From Candidatus Sumerlaeia bacterium (lineage in GTDB: Bacteria > Sumerlaeota > Sumerlaeia > MVZB01), in NCBI GenBank assembly GCA_039683515.1, contig JBDKRG010000059.1, forward strand, positions 105,003 to 169,002: a DNA stretch of 64,000 nt, read 5' to 3'. The notes under the pieces were generated by a model. The model had not been told where the DNA came from. It made no database searches and worked only from the letters and a program-made list of their open reading frames with translations. The stretch's first letter is position 1; the number at the start of each line of letters is the position of its first letter. This document shows positions 22,605 to 59,350 of the stretch, in pieces. Made by a program: the position numbers and the translations under genes.

Positions 22605-22675
22605 TTCGTGCTCGTGCGTCGAGCTCGTGCTCGTGCTCGTGCTCGTAATCGTAATCGTAATCGAAAATCGATCGA
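22605..22675 (+). repeat. hexamer composite repeat (CGTGCT)n(CGTAAT)n, copy 2
   Basis: ttcgtgctcgtgcgtcgagctcgtgctcgtgctcgtgctcgtaatcgtaatcgtaatcgaaaatcgatcg. It begins 28 nt upstream of the smpB start codon, on the opposite strand. Confidence 0.92.
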
Positions 22676-27448: not shown

Positions 27449-27573
27449 AACGGCGGCAAATCCTTCTGAAAGGCTGGAGCGCGCGCCGGCCGCCCGAAAG
27501 TGACCGCCGCCGCTCAACCGCCCATTGTCACGAAAACCAGCCCCAATCGGCAATTGAAATATGGACGGAGAGG

Positions 27574-27600
27574 CACGGACGGGCACGGACAAGCACAGAT
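27574..27600 (+). repeat. decamer-period repeat GCACGGACNN
   Basis: ggcacggac gggcacggac aagcacagat, in the divergent spacer before the TPP riboswitch. Confidence 0.8.
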
Positions 27601-27667
27601 AATGGCATCACGGCTCGGGCGAAATCGAATCAGTTTGCCTTTGATCGCCTCCCGCGATAGCCTATGG

Positions 27668-27750
27668 GTCTGAGCTGGGGGTGCTGCGCCGAACGGCGCG
27701 GCTGAGAGAGTCCCTTCGAACCTGATCCGGGTAATGCCGGCGCAGGGAAA
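27668..27750 (+). promoter_or_regulatory. TPP (THI-box) riboswitch aptamer
   Basis: gggggtgc...ggCTGAGAgagtcccttcgaACCTGATCcGGgTAATgCCggCGcAGGGAA matches the conserved TPP aptamer cores (CUGAGA; ACCUGAUCUGGAUAAUGCCAGCG). It lies directly upstream of thiC. Confidence 0.88.
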
Positions 27751-27780
27751 GCTTTCCGGCTTTCTTTCCCCCACACTTAA

Positions 27781-29706
<1,926 letters not shown>

Positions 29707-31396: not shown

Positions 31397-31836
31397 GATT
31401 GCACCTCCTTGAAGGATGCGAACAACTGCGAGAGCGAAACAGCCGAACGGGATGCACGGGCAGGGCGTTCATCCTTCCCGCGCATGCGAAATGAATAAAT
31501 AAGCCGATCGGGAAGAGAAGAGCGCACAGCCCCGCCATGAGAAAACCTCCTTTCAGATGGATGCCACGAAAGATTTTTATGCCGCCGCCGGGTTCAAAGT
31601 CAATGAATATTATTTTTTGATCTCATTGCATTTATAATAAGTCTCAAATAGAATGGATTTTCAAGGTTCCATATTCAAATACTATGAATAATAATATATA
31701 ATGTTATGTTTTGTCGGATAACGCAAAAGGGGACATATCGGCAGAATTCGGCCGCGGCCAGAACACGAAAACGTACAATTTTCACCTTGTGGATTAATCG
31801 CGAACTGCCCGACAAGGGGACCAATCGATTGTGACA

Positions 31837-31866
31837 CTTTTCGCTTTGCCGCTTTTCGCTTTGCCG
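31837..31866 (+). repeat. 15-nt perfect tandem duplication
   Basis: cttttcgctttgccg x2, about 70 nt upstream of the DUF2167-like gene. Confidence 0.9.
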
Positions 31867-31935
31867 CTTGACTCTGTCATTTCCGGGCCGTATCTTTCCC
31901 CTTTCATCGAGTCCCATTCAGAGGAAGGTCTGCAC

Positions 31936-32787
31936 ATGAAGATCCTCACCCGGGCACTGGCAACTTTTCTGCTTTTCGCCAACCTGGCCGTGTTCGCGCA
32001 GGATGACGCCGACACGTCGAAAACCACGGTCGAAAAGATCGAGTCGCAACTGAAGCTCAAATTCCAGAAGGGGCCCGGCGTCGGCAATCTCGGCGGCGCC
32101 GCCGAGATCAAGATCCCGGAAGGATTCGTGTTCCTCGAGGCCAAGGACACGCAGACCCTGCTGGAGGCGATGGAAAACCCGACCGGCGGCGACGAACTCG
32201 GCTTCATCGCCCCCGCCAGCCTCGACTGGTTCGTCGTGTTCGAGTTCGACGACAGCGGCTACGTCAAGGACGACGAAAAGGGCAACCTCGACGCCGACAA
32301 GATGCTCGAATCCATGAAGCGCGGCAACAAGGAAGGCAACAAGGAGCGCAAGCGGCGCGGCTGGGCGGAGCTGAACCTCATCGGCTGGGAGATCAAGCCC
32401 GCCTACAACGACCAGACGCACAACCTGGAGTGGGCGATCAAGTGCGAGAGCGCAGGGAAGATGGTCATCAACCACAACACGCGCGTCCTGGGCCGCAAGG
32501 GCGTGATGGAAGTGACGCTCGTCGCCGGACCCGAGGAACTCGCCCCGAACCTGCCCAAGTTCCGCGAGGTGCTCACCGGGTTCGATTACAAGTCCGGCAA
32601 CAAATACGCCGAATACCGGCAGGGCGACAAGATCGCCGAATACGGCCTCACCGCGCTCGTCGTTGGCGGCGCCTCGGCCGTCGCGCTCAAGTCGGGCGCG
32701 TTCAAGGGGCTGTGGAAACTCATCGTCCTGGCCATCGCCGGCATCGGCGGCCTCTTGGGGAAACTTTTCGGCCGCAAGTCCGAATGA
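31936..32787 (+). CDS. DUF2167-like membrane-anchored protein
   Basis: The ATG is preceded by GAGGAAGG. It has signal peptide 'MKILTRALATFLLFANLAVFA'. 'GWEIKPAYNDQTHNLEWAI' and 'NHNTRVLGRKGV' match my recollection of the DUF2167 family. Two C-terminal TM helices. Confidence 0.55.
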   Translation: MKILTRALATFLLFANLAVFAQDDADTSKTTVEKIESQLKLKFQKGPGVGNLGGAAEIKIPEGFVFLEAKDTQTLLEAMENPTGGDELGFIAPASLDWFVVFEFDDSGYVKDDEKGNLDADKMLESMKRGNKEGNKERKRRGWAELNLIGWEIKPAYNDQTHNLEWAIKCESAGKMVINHNTRVLGRKGVMEVTLVAGPEELAPNLPKFREVLTGFDYKSGNKYAEYRQGDKIAEYGLTALVVGGASAVALKSGAFKGLWKLIVLAIAGIGGLLGKLFGRKSE

Positions 32788-34333: not shown

Positions 34334-35020
34334 ATGCCCCGCATCGCCCGTTTTGTCCTGCCCGGCCACGCCCACCACATCCTCCAGCGCGGCAATAACG
34401 ATCAGCCCGTATTCCTTTCGGACGAGGATCGGATGGCGTATCTGGAGCTCCTGCGCGACGAGTCCGAGCGCCACGGCCTGCACATCCTAGGCTACTGCCT
34501 CATGGACACGCACCTGCACCTGGTCGCGATCCCGACCGAGGCCGAGTCGCTCGCCCGGGCCGTCGGCCGGGCGCACTTCCGCTATGCGCAGCAGTTCAAC
34601 CTCGCCCACCAGCGCGGCGGGCATTTCTGGAACAACCGGTTCCACTCGTGCCTGCTCGAAGGGCCGTGCACGCTGGCGGCGCTGCGGCTGATCGAGCGGA
34701 ACCCGGTCCGCGCCGGCTCGGTCAAGCAGCCGTGGCAATGGCCGTGGTCGAGCGCCTCGGCGCATTTGGGCGAAATCGACTTCAGCGGCCTGATCGACCC
34801 CGAGCGCTGGTCGGCGCTGTCGCACGGCCGTGACTGGCGCAACGAGCTCAAGCGCAAAGACGACGAGGCCGAGCTCAAGCGGCTGCGCCTGGCGACCAGC
34901 ACCGGCCGGCCGTGGACCAGCGAGGCGTTCCTGAAGAAACTGGAAAACGACCTGGGCAAGCGGTTCCACGCGCTCGCCCCGGGCCGGCCCAAAAAGAAAA
35001 CCGAAACAGCCGTGGCGTAA
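34334..35020 (+). mobile_element. IS200-like Y1 transposase, REP-associated tyrosine transposase (RAYT)-type, solitary
   Basis: 'HAHHILQRGNNDQPVF' (HuH region), 'GLHILGYCLMDTHLHLV', 'YAQQFNLAHQRGGHFWNNRFHS' (catalytic Tyr region). No partner tnpB and no obvious IS ends. Confidence 0.8.
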
Positions 35021-35856: not shown

Positions 35857-35968
35857 GATGAATGATGAATGATGAGAGATGAATGATGAATAAGAGAAAA
35901 GAAATTCGCCTTCATCCTTCAAGCATTCATATTCTTTCATCATTCCTCATTCATCATTCATCATTCAG
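35857..35968. repeat. inverted arrays of heptamer GATGAAT
   Basis: Left arm is gatgaatgatgaatgatgagagatgaatgatgaat. Right arm is ttcatcattcctcattcatcattcatcattc. The right arm includes the last codons (NDE-stop) of the 35954..36718 gene. Confidence 0.85.
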
Positions 35969-36718
35969 TCGGAACAGCCTGATGGCGTTGCCGCTCAGGA
36001 TCCGCTCCTTGTCCTCGTCGCTGATCCGGGCGCTGCGGACGCGCAGCGGGCCGACCTCGGGGGGCATCTGCAGGACCATGCACGAGCCGTGCAGGATCCG
36101 GCCCGCCCCGACCTCGCGCACGAAGATCTCGAGCTCGCCCAGGCCCATCATGCCGGAGGTTTCGACCCACGCGTTGGGGCAGTTGCGCAGGATGTCGAGC
36201 GTCGACTGCATCTCGAACAGGTAGTTGACGCACGCGACGATGAACTGGGTCCCGGGGTGCTGGGCGATGAACGCCTTGTAGGCCGGCAGCGACGCCGCCC
36301 CGATCCGCTGGGTCGTCCACATGCGGTTGACGAGCATGACCGGGATCCCTTTTTCCCCGCAGTAGTCGGCCATCGCGGCCAGGCCGGGCTCCTCGCTCAG
36401 GACGAAGTTCTGGTGCTGCGGCAGGAGCTTGACGAGCTTGGGTCCGGGCGCGTCGAGCTGTTCCTTGTATTCCAGGCCGTTGGGGTACGGGTTGAACGTC
36501 AGGGCCGGCCAGAGGCGGCCGGGGTGTTTCGCGCAGGCGGCGAGGGCCTCGGCGTTGCCGTCGCGGTCGCTGGTCAGGTAGCCGCGGATCGGGCTGACGA
36601 ACGCCCGCTCGATCCCGGCGATGTCCATCCGGCTGACGAGCCCGTCGGCATCGTTGTGGCGGAGCTGCCAGTAGGGCAGGTTGCCGATGTATGTATTGAC
36701 GTCGATGATCACTGCCAT
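35954..36718 (-). CDS. amidohydrolase-fold (amidohydrolase_2-like) protein lacking the metal-binding signature
   Basis: TIM-barrel amidohydrolase-like layout. However, the N-terminal HxH reads 'IDVNTY' and the strand-8 'GSD' reads 'HGSC'. Its ATG directly abuts the upstream TAA. Confidence 0.55.
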   Translation of the reverse strand: MAVIIDVNTYIGNLPYWQLRHNDADGLVSRMDIAGIERAFVSPIRGYLTSDRDGNAEALAACAKHPGRLWPALTFNPYPNGLEYKEQLDAPGPKLVKLLPQHQNFVLSEEPGLAAMADYCGEKGIPVMLVNRMWTTQRIGAASLPAYKAFIAQHPGTQFIVACVNYLFEMQSTLDILRNCPNAWVETSGMMGLGELEIFVREVGAGRILHGSCMVLQMPPEVGPLRVRSARISDEDKERILSGNAIRLFRLNDE

Positions 36719-37459
36719 TTACCTCCGCAGGCTCAGGAGCCGTTCGATGTTGCCGCCCAGGATGAGCGCCTTGGCCTCGTCGCTGATCTCGGCCCCCCTG
36801 ACCTTCTGGATCTGCAGGATGGGGTCGAGCAGCGGCGTGTCCGAACCGTAGACGATGCGCTCGGGACCGAGCTCCTCGACGGCGGTCTCGATCATCGCGT
36901 TGTCGAACGAGGAGGTCGTGGTGTCGAGGATCAGGCTCGGGAAGGCCTTGGCCGCGGCGATCGAGCGCTGCCAGTCGCCATGGCCCTGCGGGCTGCCGTT
37001 CATGTGCGCGTTGATGAGCATCGCCTCCGGGATGCGGCTCAGGACGTCCTCGCACTCGTAGGCGTTGCAGTGCGACAGGATCGGGATGCGCATCTGGGCG
37101 GCCTTCTCGATGAGCGGGTACATGTAGGGGTCGACCATCAGGTGCGTCGGCGGCGTCGAGTAGATCTTGAGGCCGACGAAGCCGTAGTCGTTCACGTAGC
37201 GCTCCAGCTCGTCGATGACTTTCTTGCCGTAGCGCGGCGAGGAGACGGTGTAATACGGATAAATGCGGTCGGGGTGCTGCCGGTGGAACTTGCGCATCAG
37301 CTCGTTGCCTTCGAACGAGTCGTACAGCAGCGCGGAAAATTCGGTGACCATCATGCGGTCGATGCCGGCCCGGTCGGCGATGGCGACGAGCCCGTCGGCG
37401 TCGATGTCGACATGAAACATCGTGTTGCGTCCGATATGTACATGGGCGTCAAAAATCAT
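36719..37459 (-). CDS. amidohydrolase-family metal-dependent hydrolase
   Basis: 'MIFDAHVHIG' (HxH), 'ILSHCN', 'INAHMNG' and 'IVYGSDTPLLDP' (Asp of strand 8). Confidence 0.75.
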   Translation of the reverse strand: MIFDAHVHIGRNTMFHVDIDADGLVAIADRAGIDRMMVTEFSALLYDSFEGNELMRKFHRQHPDRIYPYYTVSSPRYGKKVIDELERYVNDYGFVGLKIYSTPPTHLMVDPYMYPLIEKAAQMRIPILSHCNAYECEDVLSRIPEAMLINAHMNGSPQGHGDWQRSIAAAKAFPSLILDTTTSSFDNAMIETAVEELGPERIVYGSDTPLLDPILQIQKVRGAEISDEAKALILGGNIERLLSLRR

Positions 37460-37483: not shown

Positions 37484-37538
37484 AACTCGTGCTCGTGCGT
37501 CGTGCTCGTAATCGTCATCGTAATCGTAATCGAACGCG
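37484..37538 (+). repeat. hexamer composite repeat, copy 4
   Basis: aactcgtgctcgtgcgtcgtgctcgtaatcgtcatcgtaatcgtaatcgaacgcg, 25 nt upstream of the amidohydrolase start (opposite strand). Confidence 0.9.
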
Positions 37539-37576
37539 ATTCCAATGATTTTGGGGTGAGGGCGAAACAAGGCGGA

Positions 37577-37630
37577 TGGGGTGGATCGATTTTCGATTAC
37601 GATTACGAGCACGAGCACGAGCACGACGCA
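37577..37630 (-). repeat. hexamer composite repeat, copy 5 (inverted relative to copy 4)
   Basis: cgattttcgattacgattacgagcacgagcacgagcacgacgcacgagcacgaa is the reverse complement of the family consensus. Confidence 0.9.
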
Positions 37631-37664
37631 CGAGCACGAAAAAAGGCCCACGCTTTTCGGCGTG
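37628..37664 (-). terminator. rho-independent (bidirectional) terminator after the 37690..40488 gene
   Basis: AAAAAAGGCCCACGC-ttttcg-GCGTGGGCCTTTTT. Confidence 0.85.
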
Positions 37665-37689
37665 GGCCTTTTTCATCCAAGGGGTGCGA

Positions 37690-40488
37690 TTAGTATTGTG
37701 TGATCTTGGCGGTCTCGCGCAGCTTGTCCATCCAGTCCTCCAGGTTCGGGAAGATCGGATACTGGTGGCCGGCCACCCAATCCGAGCGGATGCTGTAGGT
37801 GAACTTCTGGCCGACCTGGTAATTCATGATGGCATAGGTCTCGCCCGGCAGTTGCTCCAGCCGATTGAAACGCGCCACCGGGTAAACGACGCCGATGCCG
37901 ATCCAGCCGATGCTCCCGTCCTGGAAGCCGCGGTAGCCCATCACGCCGGCCGTCTCGTCGATGGCGAACGTCGAGCTGGTGATCTTGCGGAGGCCGATGC
38001 CGACCTCGACCTTGTCGCCCTTCTTGCCGCCCTTGATCTGGACCTCGATCGGCGAGTCGGGCCGGCCGGCCAGCGCCGTCGGGCGGAAGATCACGGTGTA
38101 GGGATTGTCCGCCGGGCCGACATTGGTCACGACGCACTCCAGCGTGACCTTGGTCTTCGTGTACTCGATCGGCTCGATCTTGCCGTCCTTGCCCTTGTGC
38201 CACGTGAAGATGGGGTTCATCTTCGGGGCTTCGGGGACGTCCGGCTTGTAGACCGGGTAGTTCTTCCCGTTGATCCACAGCATCAGGCCGCCGCACCCGC
38301 AGGTGTTGCCGATGTGCAGGCAGTCCATCCCCCAGTTCTGCTGTTCGTGGTAGCTGCCGCCGCCGCCGCGATTGGGGCTGGTGATGATGGGGTACAAGAG
38401 GACCGGGCGGGTCTTGCCGAAGCAATCCCAATGGCCGTAATACATGCGGTAGCCCGTCTCCCCGTTCAGGGATTCCCAGCCGACGTTGGGCGGGAGCCAC
38501 GTGTCGTCCCACGCCACCGCCTGGACCTGGGGCTCCTTCTGCAGTTGGGCGCGCCACTTGGCGTAGGCCTTGGGCGCGGGGGCGGCAAAGAGGCCGGCGA
38601 ATTTCTGAACCGGGTTGCAGTATTGCTTGCGGATGAGCCGCGTCATCGCATCGGTGTCGCCCGTGACGCGGGCGGCGACGAGCTTCTCGACGAACGCGGT
38701 CTTGTTGGCGGCGTTGGCCTGCTCCTGGAGGGCGCACAGGCGGCGGTCGGCGGCAAGCCGCATGAAGAACATCATCGATTCGTCGCGGGCGAGCAGCTTC
38801 CTGGACAGCGTCTCGGTCGTGATCGGGCTGAGGAACTTGGCCTCGATGAAGCTCCAGACCTCGTCCTTGCCCGAGCCCGGCTTGATGTTGTTCAGGGCCG
38901 TGGCCAGCGCCTGGTTGAGCGCGTAGAGGCGGGCGGGCTCGTCGTTGACGACCGGCCCGAACGCGCCGTTGACTTCCTGGAAGTTCCACTTGACCGGCTT
39001 GACGCCGCCCTCGTCGAGCTTCCAGTAATCCTCGGTCTCGCCGTCGCCGTTGACGTCGATCTGGACGCGGTCGACGATGCCGTTGGAGTCGGTGTCGAAC
39101 CACTCGTAGCGCATGTCGTTCTTGCCGTCGAAGTTGTAGTCGACGTCCATCCACGCCGTGCTCTGGTCCTTGAGGTGGATGCGCTTGTCGGCGGGGCTGA
39201 AGTAGTATTCAAACGGGCCCTTGGGGGCGTTGATGTATTCGAAGCGGCGGTTGACGGGGCCGCTCGAGGGGCCGCCCACGGCCGGGAAAATGACCTGGCC
39301 GTCGCGTCCCTTGTAGGCCTCGTTCAGGACGCCTTCCCAGCGCTCGCCGGCGGCCTTCTGGACCGCGGGCACGGGGGCGACGTTGTTGCCGTCCTCGACC
39401 CACGTCAGCATCGCGGCCGGGTACGTGACCGAGCCGAGCCATTCGGCGGCGCGGTCGCGGTCGAGCATGATGCCGACCGGCCTGCCCTGGACGGTCCACT
39501 CGGGCCGGGCGTATTCCTGCGGGATGCGCAGCGTGAACGCCGGGCCGGTGCGGCTCGGGTCGACCTTCTGGGTCCAGCCCGGGCCCTCGGCCGAGATCGA
39601 GACGTCGTAGGCGCGCGGGTTATCCTTCGTCCCGGCGTTGGCCGCGTCGAAGCTCCAGCGCAGCGAGCGGACGAGGCCGTCGTCGGCGACCAGGCGGATG
39701 ACTTCCTCGGTCACGCCGTCGCCGTCGCGGTCGTAGAACTCGAACGGGTTCTCGAAGAACGCCGTCCAGCGCGGCTCGCCCGGCTTGATGCGCAACTCGA
39801 CGAACCCCTCGTTGCCGTTGAAGTGTGTGCGCGTCTGGCAGCGGTTCTGGTCGTAGGCATAGTTGACGTCGTACCACAGCAGGTGGTCCTTGCCGACTTC
39901 CTTCTCGGTCGCGCCGTAGTTCTGGGAGTACCAGCAGAGCACCATCCCGCCGTTGTAGGCGGAGCCGGTATACATGCCCATGCGGTCGAGGCCGCCGTCG
40001 CCGTCGACGTCTTCGTAGTCGATCACGGCGTCGAGCATGCCGTCGGCCTTCCAGTCGGCGTAGAACGTGCTGTTGGCCTTGTTGGGCTCGTCGCCCTTCT
40101 TGATCGGGTACTTGGGGACGGCCTTGACGATGATCGGCTTGCGGGCGGCCGAGTGGCGCGAGTCGTTGTCGAGGAACCACACCTCGTCGGGCTGGCCGTC
40201 GTTGTTGGTGTCATAGTAGAAGCGCGGGGCGGGATCCTCGGCCCCCAGCTTTTTGCCCGAGGCCAGGACTTCCGAGACCTTGGCCGGATCGAGCTTGGCC
40301 TTGTCGCCGAAAACATACTCCAGAGCGGCCTGTTTGTCGGCGGGGTTTGGCGCCTGGCGGGCCGGAGCCTTCTTGCCGGCCGCGGCGGCCCCGCGCTGCC
40401 CGTTGCGGCCGGGCCGCTGGGCCTGGACCTCGACCGCCATCGCGAACACAACCACCAGTGCGATTGACAACATCAATCGACTCTTCAT
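37690..40488 (-). CDS. large secreted protein, paralog 1 (Ca-binding-loop repeats; C-terminal DUF4861-like region)
   Basis: The start at 'MKSRLMLSIALVVVFAMAVEVQA' has SD AAGGGAGAG. There are multiple D-x-[DN]-x-DG loops ('DTNNDGQPDE','DVDGDGGLD','DRDGDGVTEE','DVNGDGETED'). The C-terminal 'GWESLNGETGYRMYYGHWDCFGK...NTCGCGGLMLWING' is reminiscent of DUF4861. Confidence 0.6.
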   Translation of the reverse strand: MKSRLMLSIALVVVFAMAVEVQAQRPGRNGQRGAAAAGKKAPARQAPNPADKQAALEYVFGDKAKLDPAKVSEVLASGKKLGAEDPAPRFYYDTNNDGQPDEVWFLDNDSRHSAARKPIIVKAVPKYPIKKGDEPNKANSTFYADWKADGMLDAVIDYEDVDGDGGLDRMGMYTGSAYNGGMVLCWYSQNYGATEKEVGKDHLLWYDVNYAYDQNRCQTRTHFNGNEGFVELRIKPGEPRWTAFFENPFEFYDRDGDGVTEEVIRLVADDGLVRSLRWSFDAANAGTKDNPRAYDVSISAEGPGWTQKVDPSRTGPAFTLRIPQEYARPEWTVQGRPVGIMLDRDRAAEWLGSVTYPAAMLTWVEDGNNVAPVPAVQKAAGERWEGVLNEAYKGRDGQVIFPAVGGPSSGPVNRRFEYINAPKGPFEYYFSPADKRIHLKDQSTAWMDVDYNFDGKNDMRYEWFDTDSNGIVDRVQIDVNGDGETEDYWKLDEGGVKPVKWNFQEVNGAFGPVVNDEPARLYALNQALATALNNIKPGSGKDEVWSFIEAKFLSPITTETLSRKLLARDESMMFFMRLAADRRLCALQEQANAANKTAFVEKLVAARVTGDTDAMTRLIRKQYCNPVQKFAGLFAAPAPKAYAKWRAQLQKEPQVQAVAWDDTWLPPNVGWESLNGETGYRMYYGHWDCFGKTRPVLLYPIITSPNRGGGGSYHEQQNWGMDCLHIGNTCGCGGLMLWINGKNYPVYKPDVPEAPKMNPIFTWHKGKDGKIEPIEYTKTKVTLECVVTNVGPADNPYTVIFRPTALAGRPDSPIEVQIKGGKKGDKVEVGIGLRKITSSTFAIDETAGVMGYRGFQDGSIGWIGIGVVYPVARFNRLEQLPGETYAIMNYQVGQKFTYSIRSDWVAGHQYPIFPNLEDWMDKLRETAKITQY

Positions 40489-40677
40489 CTGACTCTCCCT
40501 TCGATGAAAATATAGTCCGAGGCGCGTCACGGCCGATCCGGCCGCGCAGAGTAACCGTTCATTCAATCAAATACCATTCATCACTCATCAGTCAGGCAAT
40601 GTCAATAAAACTAGTGTCGCGTCAAATGTCATCTGTTGGATTTGTTTTTGAACCGCGAAGCGGTTCGACGTTCAAAG

Positions 40678-40716
40678 CCGTGGGTTGAATCGCCGCTGTT
40701 GCGATTCAACCCACGG
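40678..40716. other. perfect 16-bp stem hairpin
   Basis: CCGTGGGTTGAATCGC-cgctgtt-GCGATTCAACCCACGG, 19 nt beyond the stop of the 40735..43410 gene. There is no U-tract, so it is not a classical terminator. Confidence 0.8.
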
Positions 40717-40734
40717 AACGCGCTCAGTCCTGTT

Positions 40735-43410
40735 TCAATAGTTCGCCAGCTTGGCCGTCCGGCGCAGCTGGTTCATCCAGTCCTCCGGCGACGGCGCGAC
40801 CGGGAACCGGTGGCCGCGGACCCAGTCCGACTGGATGCTGTAGGTGAACGTCTCGCCGACCTTGTATTTCAGCACGGCGAAGTGCTGGAACGGCATCGTC
40901 TCGACGCGCAGGAACCGGTCGGCCGGGAAAACCACGCCGAAGCCGGCCCAGCCGATCGACGGGTCCTGCCAGCCGCGGACGCCCATGACGCCGGCCTGGC
41001 CGTCGATCATGAACGTCTCGCTCCCCATCGGCCGCCCCTGGGACTGGAAGCCCAGGCCGACGCCGACCTCGAGCTTGTCGCCCGGGTCGCCGCCGGTGAT
41101 CGTGACCTCGATTGGGGAGTCGGCGCGGCCGGCCAGCGCGCTCATCCGGAACCGAACCGTGTACGGCGTGGTTCCGGTCGTGCCGACGTTGGTCGCCACG
41201 CACTCGAGCGTGACCTTGTCGCGCGTCGAAACGACCGGGCCCGCCGTCCACGTGAACTCGGGCCCCGCCTTGCCGATCTTGTAAACCGGGCAGGGCGTGC
41301 CGTTGACCCACAGCATGAGGCCGCCGAGGCCGCACGTCTGGCCGCCGTGCAGGATGTCCATCCCCCACGACGTGTTGTTGCGGATCATGGCTTCCTTGTC
41401 GGCGTTGAGGATCGGGTAGCACAGCACGTCGCGGCTCTTGCCGAACGTGTCGAAGTGGCCGTCATACATCCGGAACGCCCCCTGCAGCGACTCCCAGCCG
41501 TAGTTGGGCGGCAGCCACTGGTTGTCCCAGCCGACGAGTGGGCCCTGGGGCCTGGCGCGCAGCGCGCCGATCCAGTCGGCGTAGGTCTGCGGCGGGGCTG
41601 AGACCTTGAACGCCTTGCGGACAAGCCTCGTCATCGCGTCGATGTCCCCCCGGCTCCTGGCCGCCTCGAACCTGCCCAGGAACTTCGCGTCGCCCGCGGC
41701 CTGCGCCTTGAGCGCGCACAGCGCCTGGTCGGCCGAAAGCCGCAGGTAGAACAGGATCGACTCGTCGCTCGACAAAAGCTTCTGCTGGAGCGCCTCGGTC
41801 GTAGTCGCGCACCGGAACCGGTTGTTGAGGAGCGTCCATGCCGCGTTCCACGGCGTGTTGGGCCGGTTCTTCTCGATCGCCCGCAGGAGCGCGCAGTTGA
41901 GGGCATAAAGCTTGGCGGGTTCCTGTTTTTCGACCGGGCCGGTCGCCTGGTTGATCGCCTCGAACGTCCACGCCACCGGCGCGATCCCCGCCTGGTCGAG
42001 CGGCCACGCGTCGTCGATTTTCCCGTCGCCGTTGACGTCGACCGTCATCTTGTCGACGTAGCCGTTGCGGTCGGCGTCGACGAACTCGTAGAACATGTCG
42101 GTCCGGCCGTCGCGGTCCATGTCGACGTCGATGAACGAGCGGTCGGCGCCCTTGAGATGCAGGCGCTTGTCGGCGGGCAGGAAGTAGTATTCGAGCGGGC
42201 CCTTCGGGGCCGCCAGGTATTCGTTGCGCTTGTTGAACCGGCTGCACGGCGGCCCGCCGACCTGCGGGAAGACGACCTTGCCGTCTTCCGAATACGCGTG
42301 GTTGAGGATCCCCTCCCAGCGCTCGCCGAGACCGGTGTCGCGCGGGGTGACGTTGTCGTCGTCCTCGTCCCACGTCATGAGGGCCGCCGCCCACGTGACC
42401 GGCATGAGCCAGCCCACGCACTTGCCGGGGTCCATCATGAGGTTCGTCTTGAAGCCGCGGACCGTCTCGGTCTTGCAGACGTCCTCGCCGTAGCGGAGCG
42501 TCAGGCTGCTGCGGTCGCCCTGCGCGAGCGTCCAGCCCGGGGCGCGCGCCGAAATGGAGACGTCGTAGTCGCGCGGCGAGTCGGCCGCGCCGTCGCCGTC
42601 GGCGTCGAAGCTCCAGCGCAGCGAGGCGACGAGGCCGCCTTCGCTCACGACGCGGACGACTTCCTCGGTCACGCCGTCGCCGTCGCGGTCGAAGAACAGG
42701 AACGGGTTTTCGTAGCGGCAGGTCCAGCGGTCCTCGCCCGGGCGGATGCGCAGGGCGTAGAACGATTCGCTCCCGCCGAAGTGGGTGCGGTACTGGCATT
42801 CCGTCTGGCTGTAGCGGTAGTCGATGTCGTGCCAGAGGAGGTTGTCGTCGCCGTCGTCGCGCGACCACCAGCAGTCGACGCTCTCCTTGCGGGCGGTGAA
42901 GATGCCCATGCGGTCCAGGTCGCCGTCGCCGTCGGTGTCCTCGTAATCGACGACCGAGTCGACGAGGCCGTCGGCATGGCAGTCGGCCACGAACGTCGCG
43001 TTGGCGCGGCCGACTTCGTCCCCTTCCTTCAGCTTGCCGGTCTTGTCGATGGCGCGGACGAGGAGCGGCCGGTTGCCGGGCATCGCGCCCGGGTCGATGA
43101 ACCAGGCCTCCTCCGGCTTGCCGTCGTTGTTGGTGTCGGCATAGAAACGCTGGCCGGGCCGGGCGGCCCTGACCTTGGCGATCATCGCCGGGTCGAGCTT
43201 GACCTCGCCGCCGAACACGTACTCGAAGTTGGCCTGCCGGGCCTCCGCCAGCGCCTTCTGTTCGGGCGTCATGACGAACGGCGGATAGACCGGCGCCGCG
43301 TCCGCGCGCCGGCCCCGGCGCGCCGGCTGGGGCTCGTCGCCTTCCTGCGCGTGGACGGCAACCGCGCTGAAAAACAAAAACAGAGCAGCCAGGATCAATC
43401 GACTCTTCAT
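40735..43410 (-). CDS. large secreted protein, paralog 2
   Basis: The start at 'MKSRLILAALFLFFSAVAVHA' has SD GGGAG. It is colinear with paralog 1: 'ENPFLFFDRDGDGVTEEVVRVV', 'LRWSFDA', 'YDVSISA', 'PKGPLEYYFLPADKRLHLK', 'WGMDILHGGQTCGLGGLMLWVNG', 'FTYSIQSDWV'. The N-terminal 440 aa of the 1335-aa ORF in the track is spurious. Confidence 0.6.
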   Translation of the reverse strand: MKSRLILAALFLFFSAVAVHAQEGDEPQPARRGRRADAAPVYPPFVMTPEQKALAEARQANFEYVFGGEVKLDPAMIAKVRAARPGQRFYADTNNDGKPEEAWFIDPGAMPGNRPLLVRAIDKTGKLKEGDEVGRANATFVADCHADGLVDSVVDYEDTDGDGDLDRMGIFTARKESVDCWWSRDDGDDNLLWHDIDYRYSQTECQYRTHFGGSESFYALRIRPGEDRWTCRYENPFLFFDRDGDGVTEEVVRVVSEGGLVASLRWSFDADGDGAADSPRDYDVSISARAPGWTLAQGDRSSLTLRYGEDVCKTETVRGFKTNLMMDPGKCVGWLMPVTWAAALMTWDEDDDNVTPRDTGLGERWEGILNHAYSEDGKVVFPQVGGPPCSRFNKRNEYLAAPKGPLEYYFLPADKRLHLKGADRSFIDVDMDRDGRTDMFYEFVDADRNGYVDKMTVDVNGDGKIDDAWPLDQAGIAPVAWTFEAINQATGPVEKQEPAKLYALNCALLRAIEKNRPNTPWNAAWTLLNNRFRCATTTEALQQKLLSSDESILFYLRLSADQALCALKAQAAGDAKFLGRFEAARSRGDIDAMTRLVRKAFKVSAPPQTYADWIGALRARPQGPLVGWDNQWLPPNYGWESLQGAFRMYDGHFDTFGKSRDVLCYPILNADKEAMIRNNTSWGMDILHGGQTCGLGGLMLWVNGTPCPVYKIGKAGPEFTWTAGPVVSTRDKVTLECVATNVGTTGTTPYTVRFRMSALAGRADSPIEVTITGGDPGDKLEVGVGLGFQSQGRPMGSETFMIDGQAGVMGVRGWQDPSIGWAGFGVVFPADRFLRVETMPFQHFAVLKYKVGETFTYSIQSDWVRGHRFPVAPSPEDWMNQLRRTAKLANY

Positions 43411-43448
43411 CGTTTTCTCCCTCGGGTAGGTATATTCCTCTGGTGATT

Positions 43449-43492
43449 GGATCCTATGAGTCCCATGAGTCCTATAAGTCCTATGGGACTCA
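43449..43492 (+). repeat. nonamer tandem repeat GAGTCCYAT x ~4.5
   Basis: ggatcctat gagtcccat gagtcctat aagtcctat gggactc. Confidence 0.9.
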
Positions 43493-43508: not shown

Positions 43509-44825
43509 TTACCAGGTCTTGGCCATCGCGGCCATTGCATCGCCGGCGGCTTCGAGCGTCTGCTCGACCTCGCGGTCGCCGTGCGCCGTCGAGACGAACA
43601 TCAACCCGGCCGGCGTCGAGCGGATGCCGCGTTCCTGGAATTCCCGGAACAGGCGCCGCGTCCTCGCCGTGTCGGTCTGCGCGTAGGTGCGCGAATCGAC
43701 GACGGGCGCGGCGTCCGGCGGCAGGAACGACACGTGCATGATCGGGCCCGCCCCGCGGACGGCCAGCGGCAGCTCGAGCTTGCGGCCGATCTCGCGGAAA
43801 CCCTCGCGCAGCCGCTCGGCGACGCCGTGCGCCTGGTTGAGCAGCATGGCGTCGTCGGCGCTGAGCATGTTGAGCGCCGCCTTGACCGCGGCCATCATCA
43901 TCGGCATGGCGTTGTAGGTGCCGGCGTGGACGGTCTTGAGCGCCCCGATCCGGTCCATGTACTCGGCCTTGCCCGCGAACGCGCCGACCGGCATGCCGCC
44001 GGCGATCGCCTTGGCGAACGTGGCGAGGTCGGGGGTCACGCCGTAGTAGCCCTGGCCGCTGGAAAGCGCCAGGCGGAAGCCGGTGATGACCTCGTCGAAG
44101 ATGAGGAGCGAGCCGTGCTTGTCGCAGACCGCGCGCAGGCCGGCGAGGAAACCTTCCTTGGGCGCGACCGCCCCGTTGTTGGCCATCAGCGGCTCGGTGA
44201 TGATCGCGGCGATCTCGCCGCCGTGCTCGGCAAAAACCTGCTCCACGAGCGCCGGGTCGTTCCACGGGATGACGATCAGGTTCTTCGCGTCGTCGGGGTT
44301 CATCCCCTCGCTGCTCGGGATGACGTTCGGGCGCTCGCGCGGGCCGGCCTTGTCGAGCGGGCAGCCGTTGCTCCACGCGATGTTGTCGAACCAGCCGTGG
44401 TAGCCCGACTCGAACCTCAGGATCTTGCGGCGGCCGGTGACGGCGCGCGCCAGCCGGAGCGCGGCGTGGACCGATTCGGAGCCGGACGACGTGAACCGCA
44501 CGCGCTCGGCGCAGGGGGTGAACTGGCAAACCAGCTCGGCGGCCTCGATTTCGACCTCGGTCTGGCCCGAGTAGATCAGCCCCTTGTAGAGCTGCTCGGC
44601 GACCGCCTCGATCACCGGCCGCGGGCTGTGGCCGAGCAGCGCCGGCCCCCGCCCCAGCACGTAGTCGATGAATTCGTTGCCGTCGGCGTCCCACACGCGC
44701 GCCCCTTCGCCGCGCGCGTAGAACATCGGGTGCGGGTCCCACATGGCCCGCACGTTGCTGTTGATCCCGCCGGGGATCACGCGCCGGGCCCGTTCGAACA
44801 GCCGTGCCGATTCATCGAATCTCAT
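43509..44825 (-). CDS. class III (GSA-aminomutase-like) PLP aminotransferase
   Basis: The start at 'MRFDES' has SD GGAGGAG. 'IPGGINSNVR', 'GEGARVWDADGNEFIDY', 'SSGSESVHAALRLAR', 'FESGYHGW', 'LIFDEVITGFR'. It is not clearly HemL itself. Confidence 0.75.
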   Translation of the reverse strand: MRFDESARLFERARRVIPGGINSNVRAMWDPHPMFYARGEGARVWDADGNEFIDYVLGRGPALLGHSPRPVIEAVAEQLYKGLIYSGQTEVEIEAAELVCQFTPCAERVRFTSSGSESVHAALRLARAVTGRRKILRFESGYHGWFDNIAWSNGCPLDKAGPRERPNVIPSSEGMNPDDAKNLIVIPWNDPALVEQVFAEHGGEIAAIITEPLMANNGAVAPKEGFLAGLRAVCDKHGSLLIFDEVITGFRLALSSGQGYYGVTPDLATFAKAIAGGMPVGAFAGKAEYMDRIGALKTVHAGTYNAMPMMMAAVKAALNMLSADDAMLLNQAHGVAERLREGFREIGRKLELPLAVRGAGPIMHVSFLPPDAAPVVDSRTYAQTDTARTRRLFREFQERGIRSTPAGLMFVSTAHGDREVEQTLEAAGDAMAAMAKTW

Positions 44826-44932: not shown

Positions 44933-45128
44933 AAGCGCTGAAAGCGCGGGAGATTTCAGCCTGGGGTGGAGCGAAGCGTAGCCCCAGGAATAAGGCGTAA
45001 CATTGACAGGAGCGCTGAAGGCGCGAGAGAAACTTATGTCACGCCTTCAGCGCTCGTTATTTCTTCGTCCGACACCTGGGGCTGCGCTTCGCTCCACCCC
45101 AGGCTTAATTCTCTTGCGCCTTCAGCGC
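44933..45128. repeat. ~200-bp composite nested-palindrome element, copy 1
   Basis: Module order: AAGCGCTGAAAGCGCG / CCTGGGG-N15-CCCCAGG / GAGCGCTGAAGGCGCG / CGCCTTCAGCGCTC / CCTGGGG-N15-CCCCAGG / GCGCCTTCAGCGC. The outer, middle and inner pairs are mutually complementary. Confidence 0.9.
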
Positions 45129-45174: not shown

Positions 45175-46209
45175 TCAGCTCAGATCGATCGCCTTGCCCG
45201 TGCGCTGCGATTCGTAGCAGGCGAGCACGGCGGCGACGGCCTGGCGGCCGTCCCAACCGGTGATCGGCGGTTCCTTGTCGTTGATGATCGCGGCGAAGAA
45301 GGTCTTCAGCAGCCGCGTGAACGACGCGAGGCGGACCTGGTCGAGATAGCCCTTGCCCTTCCAGTCGATCGGCTCCTGAACGGCGATCGTCTCCCACTGG
45401 CCGCCCCTGATGGCCATCTTGGCGTGGCTGTACGAATCGACGTCGAGGAGACCGTCCTGGCAGAAGATCTGGAAGTTGTACTTTTCCTTGAAGCTCGGCG
45501 GCGGCAGCTCGAACGAGTTGAAGATGTATGCGGTCGAGCCGTCGGCCATCTCCATGAGCGCCTCGACGGTGCCGTCCGACGGCAGGTGCGGCATGTAATT
45601 GCGGCACTTGGCGTAGATGGACTTGATTTCCTGGCCGGTGAAGAACCGGATCGAGTCATAGGTGTGGATGCAGTGGCCGAGGATCAGGCCGCCCTGCTCC
45701 GGGTCCAGGTTCCAGCGCGGGACGTTGGCCTTGGCCTCGGGCTCCATGCACAGGCCCCGGATCTGGTGGACCTTGCCGATCTTGCCCGAATCGATCGCCT
45801 CTTTGGCGATGTAATTGCAGATGCGGTGGCGCTGCGTCTGGGCGACGGTGATCTTGACGTTGTTCTTCTTGGCGGCCTCGATCATCTTGTCGCAATCCTC
45901 GACCGTCGTCGCCATCGGCTTCTCGACCATGACGTGCTTGCCGGCGTTGAGCGCCGCCAGGGCGATCCTGGCGTGGAAGAGCTGCGGCGTGGGGGTCAGG
46001 ACGACGTCGATCTCGTCGCTGTTGACGAGGTCTTCCCACCGGTCGTACTGCTTCACCTTGTATTCAGTGGCGATTTCGTCGGCTCCGCGCTCGGCGGATA
46101 CGCCCGTCAGTTGGGCCTCCGGGAGATTCTTGGCGACGCAGGCCGCATAGGTCTTGCCCATGAAGCCGGCCCCGACAATGCCGATTCTCAGCTTTTCACC
46201 GTTGCTCAT
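45175..46209 (-). CDS. Gfo/Idh/MocA-family oxidoreductase
   Basis: 'LRIGIVGAGFMGKTYA' and 'KHVMVEKPMA'. Confidence 0.88.
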   Translation of the reverse strand: MSNGEKLRIGIVGAGFMGKTYAACVAKNLPEAQLTGVSAERGADEIATEYKVKQYDRWEDLVNSDEIDVVLTPTPQLFHARIALAALNAGKHVMVEKPMATTVEDCDKMIEAAKKNNVKITVAQTQRHRICNYIAKEAIDSGKIGKVHQIRGLCMEPEAKANVPRWNLDPEQGGLILGHCIHTYDSIRFFTGQEIKSIYAKCRNYMPHLPSDGTVEALMEMADGSTAYIFNSFELPPPSFKEKYNFQIFCQDGLLDVDSYSHAKMAIRGGQWETIAVQEPIDWKGKGYLDQVRLASFTRLLKTFFAAIINDKEPPITGWDGRQAVAAVLACYESQRTGKAIDLS

Positions 46210-46435: not shown

Positions 46436-47254
46436 TCACCCTATTTTCGACGCGTTGGGCAGGCCCTTGCGCACCGGGTTGCGCAGCGTGCCGACCCCCT
46501 CGATCTCGACCTCGACCGTCTCGCCCTCGCGCATGAACCGCGGCGGGGTGCGCATGTGGCCGACCCCCTCGGGCGTGCCGGTCAGGATGATCGTCCCCGG
46601 CAGCAGCGTGAACTGGTGCGACAAGTAACTGACCAGCGTCCGGCAGCTGAACAGCATCTCCTTCGTGCAGGCCTCCTGCATGAGCTCCCCCTCGAGCCGG
46701 GTGCGGATCGCGAGGTTGTCGGGGTCCCCCTCCGTCTGGATGCACGGGCCGATCGGGCAGAACGTGTCGAAGCTCTTGGCGCGCGTCCACTGGACGTCGA
46801 GCCGCATCTGGCAGTCGCGGGCGCTGACGTCGTTGGCGGCCGTCCAGCCCAGGACGTAATCCATCGCCTCGTCGCGGCTGATGCCGCGGGCCTTGCGGCC
46901 GATCACCAGCGCCAGCTCGCCCTCGAAATCGACTTCGTTGGGCGCCTGCGGCGGCAGCAGGATCGGGTCGCCGGGGCCGGCGAGCGAGGTCGTGGCCTTG
47001 AGGAAAACGACCGGGGCCGTCGGCAGCTTCATCTCGGTTTCGCGCGCGTGGCCGACGTAATTCAGGCCGATCGCAACGATGTTGGGCGGGTCGACCGGGG
47101 CCAGCATCCGCTCGATCGATTCGGCGGCGACGGCGTCCGGGCCGACGCTCCACTTGCCGAGGATATTGCCCTCGATCCGGCGCACCGAGCCATTTTCTTC
47201 CATCACGCCGTGGCACACCTCGCCGGCGTGAGTCCGAACGCGCACGATCTTCAT
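46436..47254 (-). CDS. fumarylacetoacetate hydrolase (FAH)-family protein
   Basis: 'IVAIGLNYVGHA', 'PVVFLKATTSL', 'VDFEGELALVIG' and 'ILTGTPEGVG'. Confidence 0.88.
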   Translation of the reverse strand: MKIVRVRTHAGEVCHGVMEENGSVRRIEGNILGKWSVGPDAVAAESIERMLAPVDPPNIVAIGLNYVGHARETEMKLPTAPVVFLKATTSLAGPGDPILLPPQAPNEVDFEGELALVIGRKARGISRDEAMDYVLGWTAANDVSARDCQMRLDVQWTRAKSFDTFCPIGPCIQTEGDPDNLAIRTRLEGELMQEACTKEMLFSCRTLVSYLSHQFTLLPGTIILTGTPEGVGHMRTPPRFMREGETVEVEIEGVGTLRNPVRKGLPNASKIG

Positions 47255-56537: not shown

Positions 56538-56736
56538 AAGCGCTGAAAGCGCGAAAGAATACAGCCTGGGGCGCAGCGAAGCGCAGCCCCAGGTAAGCGG
56601 CGCCATATCATTGGAGCGCTGAAGGCGCGGAAGAAGCCGATTTCTCTCGCTCCTTCAGCGCTCCGGTTTGGTGCGGTTCGTGACCTGGGGCTGCGCTGCG
56701 CTTCGCCCAGGCTATGATCTCTTGCGCCTTCAGCGC
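56538..56736. repeat. ~200-bp composite nested-palindrome element, copy 2
   Basis: Same module order and spacing as 44933-45128: AAGCGCTGAAAGCGCG ... CCTGGGG-N15-CCCCAGG ... GGAGCGCTGAAGGCGCGG ... GCTCCTTCAGCGCTCC ... CCTGGGG-N15-CCCAGG ... GCGCCTTCAGCGC. Confidence 0.9.
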
Positions 56737-59307: not shown

Positions 59308-59350
59308 GTTCGTGCTCGTGCTCGTGCTCGTGCTCGTAATCGTAATCGAA
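59308..59350 (+). repeat. hexamer composite repeat, copy 6
   Basis: ttcgtgctcgtgctcgtgctcgtgctcgtaatcgtaatcgaat. Confidence 0.92.

Follow-up and report, generated by a model that had tools for sequence, protein, structure and literature searches.

The gene pair and its products

The window considered here, the whole 64,000-nucleotide (nt) stretch of a Candidatus Sumerlaeia bacterium contig (JBDKRG010000059.1, positions 105,003 to 169,002 of the forward strand), carries on its minus strand two tandem genes, designated A and B, for large exported proteins with a C-terminal region of the Pfam family DUF4861. On the strength of full-length homology and invariant residues both are assigned to what is defined here as the long-form DUF4861 family, in which an N-terminal domain (N), a helical domain (H) and the C-terminal DUF4861 domain (C) follow one another, and on the evidence of sequence and context A and B are credible candidates for a new family of carbohydrate-active enzymes (CAZymes). 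The two genes are as follows, all coordinates being those of the window.

40735-43410, minus strand: paralog A, the upstream copy, a long-form DUF4861 protein of 891 amino acids (aa)
37690-40488, minus strand: paralog B, the downstream copy, a long-form DUF4861 protein of 932 aa

Long antisense open reading frames (ORFs) are common in the window because its GC content is about 65%, and true genes were told apart by codon-position GC (GC3, the GC content at third positions). GC3 is ~0.9 in both A and B, as is typical of coding sequence in the window, and the plus-strand ORFs at 37576-40467 and 42157-43446 were rejected as high-GC antisense artefacts, since both GC3 and homology put the genes on the minus strand. 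The genes lie head to tail with a spacer of 246 nt, and their products align colinearly over their full length in BLASTP (855 bits, E = 0; 49% identity, 63% positives), in agreement with an initial annotation of the region which had described two colinear, head-to-tail and clearly diverged paralogs. The peptide motifs that it had quoted (GWES..RMY.GH.D.FGK, WGMD.LH.G.TCG.GGLMLW.NG and FTYSI.SDWV) are all present in the A-B alignment.

Classical signal peptides were read at both N-termini, as that annotation had also reported, and suggest that A and B are Sec-exported. In A the N-terminus reads MKSRLILAALFLFFSAVAVHA followed by QE, the signal peptide comprising residues 1-22 with an AxA-type cleavage site (...AVHA/QE), and in B it reads MKSRLMLSIALVVVFAMAVEVQA followed by QR, the signal peptide comprising residues 1-24 (...EVQA/QR), both cleavage sites having been read by eye. 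A signal or lipoprotein-type leader stands at the N-terminus of nearly all of 88 homologs.

Domain anatomy and structure

An AlphaFold2 model of B, built from a 69-sequence alignment, had a predicted local distance difference test score (pLDDT) of 91.9 and a predicted template modelling score (pTM) of 0.88 over the full length, and the N domain modelled alone scored 93.1 and 0.91. The resulting domain boundaries, with the approximate equivalents in A, are these.

B, residues 25-44, minus strand: linker, disordered in the AlphaFold2 model
B, residues 45-502 (38983-40356), minus strand: N domain, two helices and then a large beta-rich region
B, residues 503-655 (38524-38982), minus strand: H domain, a helical bundle in the AlphaFold2 model
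B, residues 656-932 (37693-38523), minus strand: C domain, a DUF4861 beta-sandwich, from AlphaFold2 and Pfam
A, residues ~51-482 (41965-43260), minus strand: N domain
A, residues ~483-623 (41542-41964), minus strand: helical domain
A, residues ~624-891 (40738-41541), minus strand: C domain, a DUF4861 beta-sandwich

Hidden Markov models (HMMs) built here for the three domains match both proteins (for A with E values of 1e-179, 2e-46 and 2e-103 for N, H and C), and the domains differ in charge, N being acidic (isoelectric point, pI, 4.5-4.7), H basic (pI 9.5-9.7) and C near neutral. The DUF4861-like nature of the C-terminal region, which the initial annotation had suggested from its motifs, was borne out by Pfam DUF4861 (PF16153) matches well above the gathering cut-off of 22.3 (A, 61.2 bits, E 1.2e-16, residues 637-887; B, 79.6 bits, E 3e-22, residues 669-928). 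The match is partial in both proteins, covering model positions 128-372 of 380 in the last ~250-260 aa, and the NCBIfam equivalog model for BT3233 (NF058564, cut-off 320) was not reached, with 37.1 bits over a short stretch of B and no match in A. Neither protein matched a second Pfam family, the N domain being without any Pfam model; there was no Pfam or NCBIfam glycosidase or lyase match in either, and Pfam Hepar_II_III_N and Hepar_II_III_C gave no match even at E <= 1.

The expression D.[DN].[DN]G matches seven times in A and six times in B, compared with an estimated chance expectation of ~0.1 per protein, so that the several D-x-[DN]-x-DG loops noticed at the outset are real, and seven loops of the type DxDxDGxxD are kept family-wide (in B at D93, D145, D160, D253, D450, D465 and D478). 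Within the N domain they fall into two clusters of three, with a spacing of 13-15 aa, plus one central loop, and lie mostly between beta-strands; the two clusters are weakly alike (hhalign P 5e-4). The DxDxDGxxD form is one commonly met in the repeats of integrin FG-GAP, VCBS and thrombospondin type, and from this pattern we infer that the loops of A and B bind Ca2+ and are a source of calcium stabilisation. The resemblance to the FG-GAP, VCBS, thrombospondin type 3 and dockerin loops extends to the consensus D-x-[DN]-x-[DN]-G-x-x-[DE], but Pfam matches to FG-GAP, VCBS, TSP_3 or to an adhesin family of any kind were absent from A and B even at E <= 1, and a beta-propeller or FG-GAP identity for the loop-bearing region was rejected, the N-domain model having no propeller match above a template modelling (TM) score of 0.17 in Foldseek.

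A Foldseek search of the Protein Data Bank (PDB) with the whole model returned, apart from weaker matches to heparinase III and PL33, only matches of the C domain to galactose-mutarotase-like beta-supersandwich domains, namely those of the glycoside hydrolase (GH) families GH94 (including Cgs), GH65, GH63 (YgjK), GH36, GH38 and GH95, the best matches having probabilities of 0.97-1.0 and E values of 1e-6 to 3e-3 over 260-340 aligned columns; the TM score normalised to the query was ~0.14. It is the N-terminal supersandwich of these enzymes that matches best, and there it is an accessory domain in front of a catalytic domain, either an (alpha/alpha)6 or a TIM barrel, that has no counterpart in A or B. 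The N domain gave nothing meaningful against the PDB (best E 1.7e-3, probability <= 0.16, TM <= 0.17) and only spurious beta-hairpin-repeat matches against BFVD, and PDB sequences searched with B alone and with the 69-sequence profile yielded no match. The large unknown fold of which the initial annotation had spoken agrees with this result for the N domain, and neither Pfam, NCBIfam, PDB sequences nor Foldseek revealed any confident homology to adhesins or to a characterised non-enzymatic family.

The long-form family

A word-indexed search gathered the long-form family into 88 clusters at 90% identity, mostly of 830-980 aa and with 94-100% coverage, whose database labels are at most "DUF4861 family protein" or else hypothetical. 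Sampling of one genome per GTDB species showed relatives in 362 stretches, and none of the 76 loci retrieved is more than ~41% identical to B. The hosts of these loci are Bacteroidales (Proteiniphilum, Petrimonas, Fermentimonas, Prolixibacteraceae, Mariniphaga and Parabacteroides), Hydrogenedentota, Omnitrophota, Planctomycetota, Sumerlaeia, Terriglobia and Opitutales, a range that lends no support to the marine PVC setting envisaged by the initial annotation. The N domain is rare: an exhaustive HMM search of 1.84 billion representatives yielded 210 clusters of it (50% identity).

Across 69 sequences, A and B included, 40 columns are invariant. A further measure is given by the 151 positions that are at least 90% conserved in the other members, distributed as 104 in N, 8 in H and 39 in C. 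Of these, 141 are retained in A and 139 in B, and both copies therefore look functional. The initial annotation had singled out a conserved C-terminal stretch of ~330 aa, and the C domains of A and B are indeed 58% identical, but conservation is not confined there, the N domains being 53% and the helical domains 44% identical and the N domain holding most of the conserved positions. Conserved polar residues of the C domain include E672, R681, D688, K692, D722, E784 and Q856, together with the motif WGMDxLHxG.

When 232 retrieved proteins were classified with the domain HMMs, 107 had the N-H-C architecture, 88 consisted of N only (many of them fragments), 15 of N-H and 12 of N-C. N-only proteins are typically ~500-700 aa long and some are encoded in long-form loci, and distant N-domain proteins of ~600 aa (24-26% identity) likewise share loci with the long form. 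The N domain also occurs fused to F5/8-type-C domains, which resemble carbohydrate-binding modules (CBMs; four proteins), to BNR_4, Laminin_G_3, the alpha-mannosidase middle domain and sulfatase/phosphodiesterase domains, and in one protein of 1718 aa (P0176) to a heparinase II/III C domain. Outside the loops, the residues that remain invariant or nearly so in relatives of other architectures (20-29% identical) are E246, R265, R277, R383-W384-E385-G386, N413, R415, E417, Y429, D434 and H438, in B numbering mapped by motif in these non-canonical relatives.

The closest relative of B is P0003 (57% identity), and in a neighbour-joining tree A falls outside the clade formed by B and its nearest relatives, from which it follows that the A-B duplication is old. 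In none of the other 76 loci were two full-length copies found in direct tandem, although several genomes have more than one copy.

These genes are accordingly not of a new kind, since the long-form family is already in the databases under its DUF label; what is undescribed so far is the long N-H-C architecture, the structurally orphan N domain and the conserved locus.

Neighbouring genes and conserved loci

The genes that flank the pair in the window are listed below, in transcriptional order.

46436-47254, minus strand: FAH-family protein, 272 aa (Pfam FAA_hydrolase, 2.8e-72), of the keto-acid hydrolase, decarboxylase or dehydratase type
45175-46209, minus strand: Gfo/Idh/MocA NAD(P) oxidoreductase (GFO), 344 aa (Pfam), without a signal peptide
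43509-44825, minus strand: class-III HemL-like aminotransferase (AT3), 438 aa (Pfam Aminotran_3, 2.4e-61), separated from A by 98 nt
36719-37459, minus strand: Amidohydro_2 protein a, 246 aa (Pfam, 1.4e-26), start revised to MIFDAHVHIG
35954-36718, minus strand: Amidohydro_2 protein b, 254 aa (Pfam, 3.5e-18), abutting protein a

This set agrees with the description of the neighbours as sugar-acid-type enzymes in the initial annotation, which had not mentioned the HemL-like aminotransferase. The FAH protein resembles HpaG and L-2,4-diketo-3-deoxyrhamnonate hydrolase below the equivalog cut-offs, and occupies the same position in a syntenic contig, L077; the nearest solved relatives of GFO are inositol dehydrogenases (1e-28), its NCBIfam matches all being sub-cut-off. 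AT3, the best homolog of which is 71% identical, belongs to the PRK00062 subfamily (406 bits, cut-off 398) and fell short of the hemL equivalog (377 bits, cut-off 527). No pathway could be assigned to the neighbours through NCBIfam or the PDB, as GFO, FAH and both Amidohydro_2 proteins score below the equivalog cut-offs and their PDB relatives are generic. The revised start of Amidohydro_2 a is preceded by a Shine-Dalgarno (SD) site GGAGGGG and falls after the B terminator and a repeat element, both considered below.

To place this neighbourhood among others, neighbouring genes were clustered, representatives annotated and presence checked by tblastn, with six pre-annotated contigs as a cross-check; the counts that follow are out of 78 loci, the window included. 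Two layouts recur. The first, found in Planctomycetota, Omnitrophota and unclassified metagenome-assembled genomes (MAGs), runs in the order SSF symporter, Gfo/Idh/MocA oxidoreductase, class-III aminotransferase, long DUF4861, Amidohydro_2 and Amidohydro_2, with FAH, heparinase II/III-like, sulfatase (some with SGSH_C), esterase and MR_MLE acid-sugar dehydratase genes and the 600-aa N-domain protein as frequent extras. The window has this layout (FAH, GFO, AT3, A, B and the two Amidohydro_2 genes). P0003, the closest relative, is encoded in the syntenic MAG contig L077, where CdsA, UppS, CutA, FAH, SSF, GFO and AT3 accompany just one long DUF4861 gene. AT3, GFO and Amidohydro_2 genes together lie beside the gene in 13 loci (the window and 12 others), AT3 is directly upstream of long DUF4861 in 16, GFO is present in 21, and an aminotransferase of either the AT3 or the unrelated DegT family in 31; the Amidohydro_2 pair follows long DUF4861 in, for example, L025, L027, L030, L076 and L079.

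The second layout is that of Bacteroidales, with SusC/D, a DegT aminotransferase, a ceramidase-like protein, GH20, a NagX/HGSNAT-like membrane protein and heparinase II/III-like genes. Long DUF4861 is consistently paired here with an adjacent same-strand gene for a ~390-aa protein of the alkaline-phosphatase superfamily (sulfatase/phosphodiesterase-like), which occurs in 21 of the 78 loci (e.g. L081 12658-13824 and L082 8824-9993); in some cases (P0031, L033) the two are fused, and the fusion argues for a shared pathway. Heparinase II/III-like genes are found in 10-14 loci, SGSH-type sulfatase and acid-sugar dehydratase genes are also recurrent, and GH106 is among the neighbours. The NagX/HGSNAT-like protein (384 aa; L011 21044-22198 and six other Bacteroidales loci) scores 129 bits, the equivalog cut-off of 480 not being reached, and its gene adjoins the pair of sulfatase-like and long DUF4861 genes. 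NagX has been proposed to N-acetylate periplasmic glucosamine (PMC9007349), and such a neighbour suggests that the substrate contains glucosamine with its amine free. The ceramidase-like partner is an amidase, and it, GH20, the aminotransferases, the SGSH-type sulfatases and the heparinase II/III-like lyases also bear on anionic glycans or on the amino group of hexosamines.

Two apparent regularities were discarded. A short DUF4861 gene beside the long one in Bacteroidales proved to be a single-linkage artefact arising through fusion proteins, the ~390-aa neighbour being the alkaline-phosphatase-superfamily protein, and one neighbour cluster (13) was the antisense of Amidohydro_2, a product of longest-ORF calling in high-GC loci that was recognised by tblastn and from the annotated contigs.

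Comparison with known systems

Literature searches on DUF4861, BT3233 and PF16153 found only the study of Liu et al. 2021 and its preprint. According to that work the stand-alone DUF4861 protein BT3233 is needed by Bacteroides thetaiotaomicron for growth on heparin, chondroitin sulfate and hyaluronan through a mechanism that is unknown, and its homologs are mostly confined to Bacteroides (PMC8121099). The galactose-mutarotase-like C domain of A and B agrees with the InterPro assignment quoted there (PMC8121099), and both kinds of protein are exported and linked to the utilisation of acidic glycans (for BT3233, of glycosaminoglycans, GAGs). A and B differ in that, at 891 and 932 aa compared with the 380 positions of the Pfam model, they have an additional N-H region of ~600 aa that belongs to no assigned family.

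The two-domain lyases, that is heparinase II/III and the polysaccharide lyase (PL) families PL12, PL8, PL33 and PL15/17, also have a helical region followed by a C-terminal antiparallel beta-sandwich, and heparinase II/III-like genes are frequent neighbours of long DUF4861, as well as being represented in the P0176 fusion to the N domain. Foldseek matched heparinase III (5jmd) and the PL33 enzyme BT4410 (8r71) only weakly (E ~3e-3 over 455-527 columns, TM 0.13-0.20, root-mean-square deviation ~20 A). However, the helical part of A and B, at ~150 aa, is too small for an (alpha/alpha)5-6 toroid, and the Tyr/His catalytic tetrad of the lyases could not be aligned.

Regulatory signals, habitat and expression

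The signals read around the two genes are as follows.

43417-43423, minus strand: SD-like GAGGGAG, 6 nt before the ATG of A, read from the sequence
40495-40500, minus strand: SD-like AGGGAG, 6 nt before the ATG of B, read from the sequence
40678-40716, minus strand: perfect 16-bp stem-loop in the A-B spacer, 19 nt past the stop of A, with a weak U tract
37639-37673, minus strand: canonical intrinsic terminator after B, a 14-nt perfect inverted repeat with a 6-nt loop and a U6 tract

Each gene thus has its own GGGAG-type SD site, as stated in the initial annotation, which had in addition credited A with its own terminator. A perfect hairpin does follow A, and the RNA of the A-B spacer folds with -89 kcal/mol (z = -4.05), but its U tract is weak and a consensus terminator scan did not call it, so that it is possibly a terminator, an attenuator or an RNA-stabilising hairpin. 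The inverted repeat of the B terminator has a 9-bp core, GGCCCACGC, flanked by A/U pairs. Taken with a palindromic repeat between B and the Amidohydro_2 genes, the hairpin after A and the terminator after B fit separate regulation. In the 98-nt spacer just upstream of A, at 43449-43487 on the minus strand, four tandem units of 9-10 nt (CATAGGACTT, ATAGGACTC, ATGGGACTC and ATAGGATCC) may be an operator-like or repeat element.

A wastewater metagenome contains almost the whole 5.7-kb region of the pair (0.99 of the words sampled), and wastewater metatranscriptomes and freshwater metagenomes contain parts of it; none of these is the marine habitat first supposed. DNA word depth is uniform at ~40-46 across contigs on 34.0-49.5 kb. 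B is transcribed in situ: RNA contigs span it end to end in three metatranscriptomes (X2, X3 and X5) with word depths of ~45, 72 and 8-14. The RNA contigs of B end at 40481-40493, right at its start codon, in all three runs, and depth falls from B to A across the spacer, A being only patchily covered (depth 0-12) at a DNA depth equal to that of B. This suggests that B is the more transcribed copy, but it is only an indication, because contig depth gauges expression poorly. RNA contigs also cover GFO well, and those at Amidohydro_2 a begin near 37489-37492.

Repeats and other features of the window

A dispersed hexamer repeat, (CGTGCT)n(CGTAAT)n, has 16 matches at six places in the window where none is expected, including 37487-37639, near 2866, 22620-22657, 27795-27826 and 59311-59348. 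The copy between B and Amidohydro_2 a is a 48-nt palindrome, 92% complementary, with arms at 37487-37534 and 37592-37639; the word depth of 37487-37639 in the wastewater metagenome is ~2200, compared with ~45 in its flanks, and many assembly joints occur there. The repeat looks like a high-copy element of the repetitive extragenic palindromic (REP) or miniature inverted-repeat transposable element (MITE) type. Two Rfam matches to the Acido-Lenti-1 RNA exceed the gathering score, at 44934-44988 and 56539-56593 on the minus strand (38.1 and 46.9 bits). The former, at a metagenome depth of ~520, lies in the 349-nt GFO-AT3 spacer as one arm of a 54-nt inverted repeat (44935-44988 and 45075-45128), and the motif may here be a repeated palindromic element; taken as a taxonomic hint, it would point to Acidobacteriota or Lentisphaerota. 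An IS200/Y1-type transposase gene at 34334-35020 on the plus strand, resembling REP-associated tyrosine transposases (NCBIfam 59.6 bits, cut-off 80), lies ~1 kb away from the gene cluster; palindromic repeats abound in the window.

A second Gfo/Idh/MocA oxidoreductase, with an N-terminal extension of ~56 aa, is encoded at 26453-27607 on the minus strand and is the best match, though sub-threshold, to UDP-GlcNAc 3-dehydrogenase (294 bits, cut-off 450). The ThiC gene (27781-29706) is directly preceded by a thiamine pyrophosphate (TPP) riboswitch at 27667-27766 on the plus strand (69 bits), and the hexamer repeat at 27795-27826 is just downstream of the riboswitch, inside the 5' end of the stop-to-stop ThiC ORF. 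The stretch 29729-32787, where GC falls to 54% at 30-32 kb and which encodes a DUF2167 protein and a 555-aa ORF with an ELWxxDGT repeat and no Pfam match, may be foreign DNA. No rRNA or tRNA was found in the window.

Function and significance

The explanation that we currently prefer, to which we would give a little under an even chance, is that A and B are exported, calcium-stabilised enzymes in which the N domain acts on an anionic glycan that contains glucosamine, or on oligosaccharides of it, with H and C aiding binding and the flanking cytoplasmic enzymes consuming the product. The gene models, paralogy, domain structure, family conservation, export signals and synteny, and the transcription of B, are observed; calcium binding, catalysis, the class of substrate and the role of each domain are what we infer for A and B. 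They would act outside the cytoplasm, in the periplasm or extracellularly, on a hexosamine-containing anionic polysaccharide or oligosaccharide, candidates being heparin- or heparan-like glycans and glucosamine-containing bacterial capsule or extracellular polymeric substances (EPS). The acidic N domain of ~460 aa would bear the active site, made rigid by the seven DxDxDG loops, and the candidate active-site residues (B numbering) would be E246, R265, R277, R383-W384-E385, N413, R415, E417, Y429, D434 and H438, an Arg-rich invariant set well matched to a substrate that bears carboxylate, sulfate or phosphate groups. The basic helical bundle (pI ~9.6) and the DUF4861 sandwich might hold the polyanionic chain, by analogy with the sandwiches of PL8, PL12, PL33, GH65 and GH94. 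The small sugar released would be taken up, by the SSF symporter in related genomes, and then perhaps be oxidised or reduced by the Gfo/Idh/MocA protein, have its amino group removed or shifted or an aldehyde or keto group converted by the HemL-like aminotransferase, be acted on by the two Amidohydro_2 proteins as lactonase or hydrolase, and undergo keto-acid cleavage or dehydration by the FAH protein. The N domain is the most constrained part of the family and, in occurring both alone and in fusions, behaves like a catalytic module. Also in favour are the signal peptides, the synteny across phyla, the BT3233 phenotype on GAGs, the resemblance of the C domain to the supersandwiches of GH enzymes, the opposite charges of N and H, and the transcription of B. 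The association with carbohydrate genes foreseen by the initial annotation is conserved elsewhere, across phyla, so that the absence of such an association, which it had named as a refutation, was not borne out; the idea of a new glycan-acting family stands as a candidate with a carbohydrate context and a putative activity, but not in the sense of a family absent from the databases, given its ~88 clusters and 362 GTDB relatives.

Several observations weigh against this explanation. A and B bear no likeness in sequence or structure to a known catalytic domain in Pfam, NCBIfam, the PDB or Foldseek, and the label "enzyme" is therefore drawn only from the conservation pattern and the context. Because the set of partners is heterogeneous the substrate class is uncertain, and an oxidative route for uronates or deoxy sugars (GFO, an Amidohydro_2 lactonase, an MR_MLE dehydratase, FAH and a semialdehyde transaminase) accounts for the partners about equally well as the glucosamine route. 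About half of the loci show no partner gene within 10 kb, no lyase, sulfatase or SSF gene lies near A and B in the window, and in several Bacteroidales loci long DUF4861 comes directly after susD, a position typical of non-catalytic surface glycan-binding proteins (SGBPs). A bolder form of the catalytic explanation, which we hold to be somewhat unlikely, would make the N domain the catalytic module of an unrecognised CAZyme family (PL, GH or a new type of exo-enzyme) with a fold absent from the PDB. It would act on anionic glycans with N-unsubstituted or N-sulfated glucosamine, or on lyase-generated oligosaccharides, in place of enzymes of the GH88 type, and would feed an undescribed transaminase/oxidoreductase route for amino sugars common to Planctomycetota, Omnitrophota, Hydrogenedentota and Bacteroidales.

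The position after susD (immediately downstream of it in L002, L004, L005, L033 and L081) is one of the reasons to consider instead that A and B are non-catalytic, an SGBP-like scaffold or periplasmic capture protein in which N domain and sandwich pass polyanionic glycan to lyases, sulfatases and transporters. No catalytic fold is detectable, domains with the galactose-mutarotase-like superfold often lack catalysis, leaders of the lipoprotein type are present in some homologs, and the adjacency and fusion to sulfatase-like and heparinase-like enzymes could be the arrangement of a binding module. We nevertheless judge this unlikely, since the invariant charged and aromatic residues spread over ~460 aa are unusually many for a lectin-like module, fusions join the N domain to genuine CBM-type domains (F5/8 type C) in the pattern of a catalytic module, and outside Bacteroidota the gene sits among those of cytoplasmic enzymes without SusC/D. 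The catalytic role could also be reversed, with the C-terminal DUF4861 domain acting as a mutarotase-, epimerase- or isomerase-like enzyme on released unsaturated uronate or hexosamine and the N domain as a calcium-dependent anchoring or capture module. The galactose-mutarotase fold does include true enzymes (aldose 1-epimerase), and the C domain has its own conserved polar residues and WGMDxLHxG motif. Stand-alone BT3233 moreover has a GAG-specific fitness phenotype (PMC8121099). Against this, the Pfam model is matched only in part, the score of B against the BT3233 equivalog is 37 bits where 320 are required, with none for A, many proteins (N-only and N-H) have the N domain without the C domain, and only 39 of the 151 conserved positions fall in C, so that such a division of labour seems distinctly improbable.

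Still less probable, and indeed very unlikely in our estimation, is a role unrelated to catabolism, either as calcium-binding adhesins or envelope proteins of the FG-GAP, VCBS or TSP3-like kind or as periplasmic modifiers in the biosynthesis of an amino-sugar polymer, with GFO and an aminotransferase working as in UDP-GlcNAc3N synthesis. The loops are of the form usual in such repeats, pairs of GFO with DegT or AT3 also occur in nucleotide-amino-sugar biosynthesis, GFO weakly resembles UDP-GlcNAc 3-dehydrogenase (NCBIfam), and UppS and CdsA genes are nearby. However, neither the Pfam nor the Foldseek searches described above found an adhesin or propeller match, there is no glycosyltransferase, flippase or polymerase among the 17 annotated recurrent neighbour families, the neighbours found are SusC/D, GH20, GH106, lyase-like and sulfatase genes, and UppS and CdsA near the pair in the window are housekeeping genes on the other strand.

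DUF4861 is one of the few families of unknown function with a genetic phenotype in GAG use by gut Bacteroides. The long form adds to it a large, conserved and confidently modelled domain without a structural relative in the libraries searched, as well as a genomic link across several phyla to lyase-like, sulfatase-like, hexosaminidase and NagX/HGSNAT-like proteins and two unrelated aminotransferase families, and hosts that are cultivable (Proteiniphilum sp. X52, Petrimonas sulfuriphila DSM 16547, Mariniphaga sediminis SY21 and Parabacteroides sp. Marseille-P3160). If the N domain only binds, it would still be a new calcium-dependent fold for glycan recognition. If it is catalytic, it would define a CAZyme family of its own and a new way of handling the amino sugars of anionic polymers, which would bear on how necromass and EPS are turned over in anaerobic digesters and wastewater, and possibly on the degradation of GAGs.

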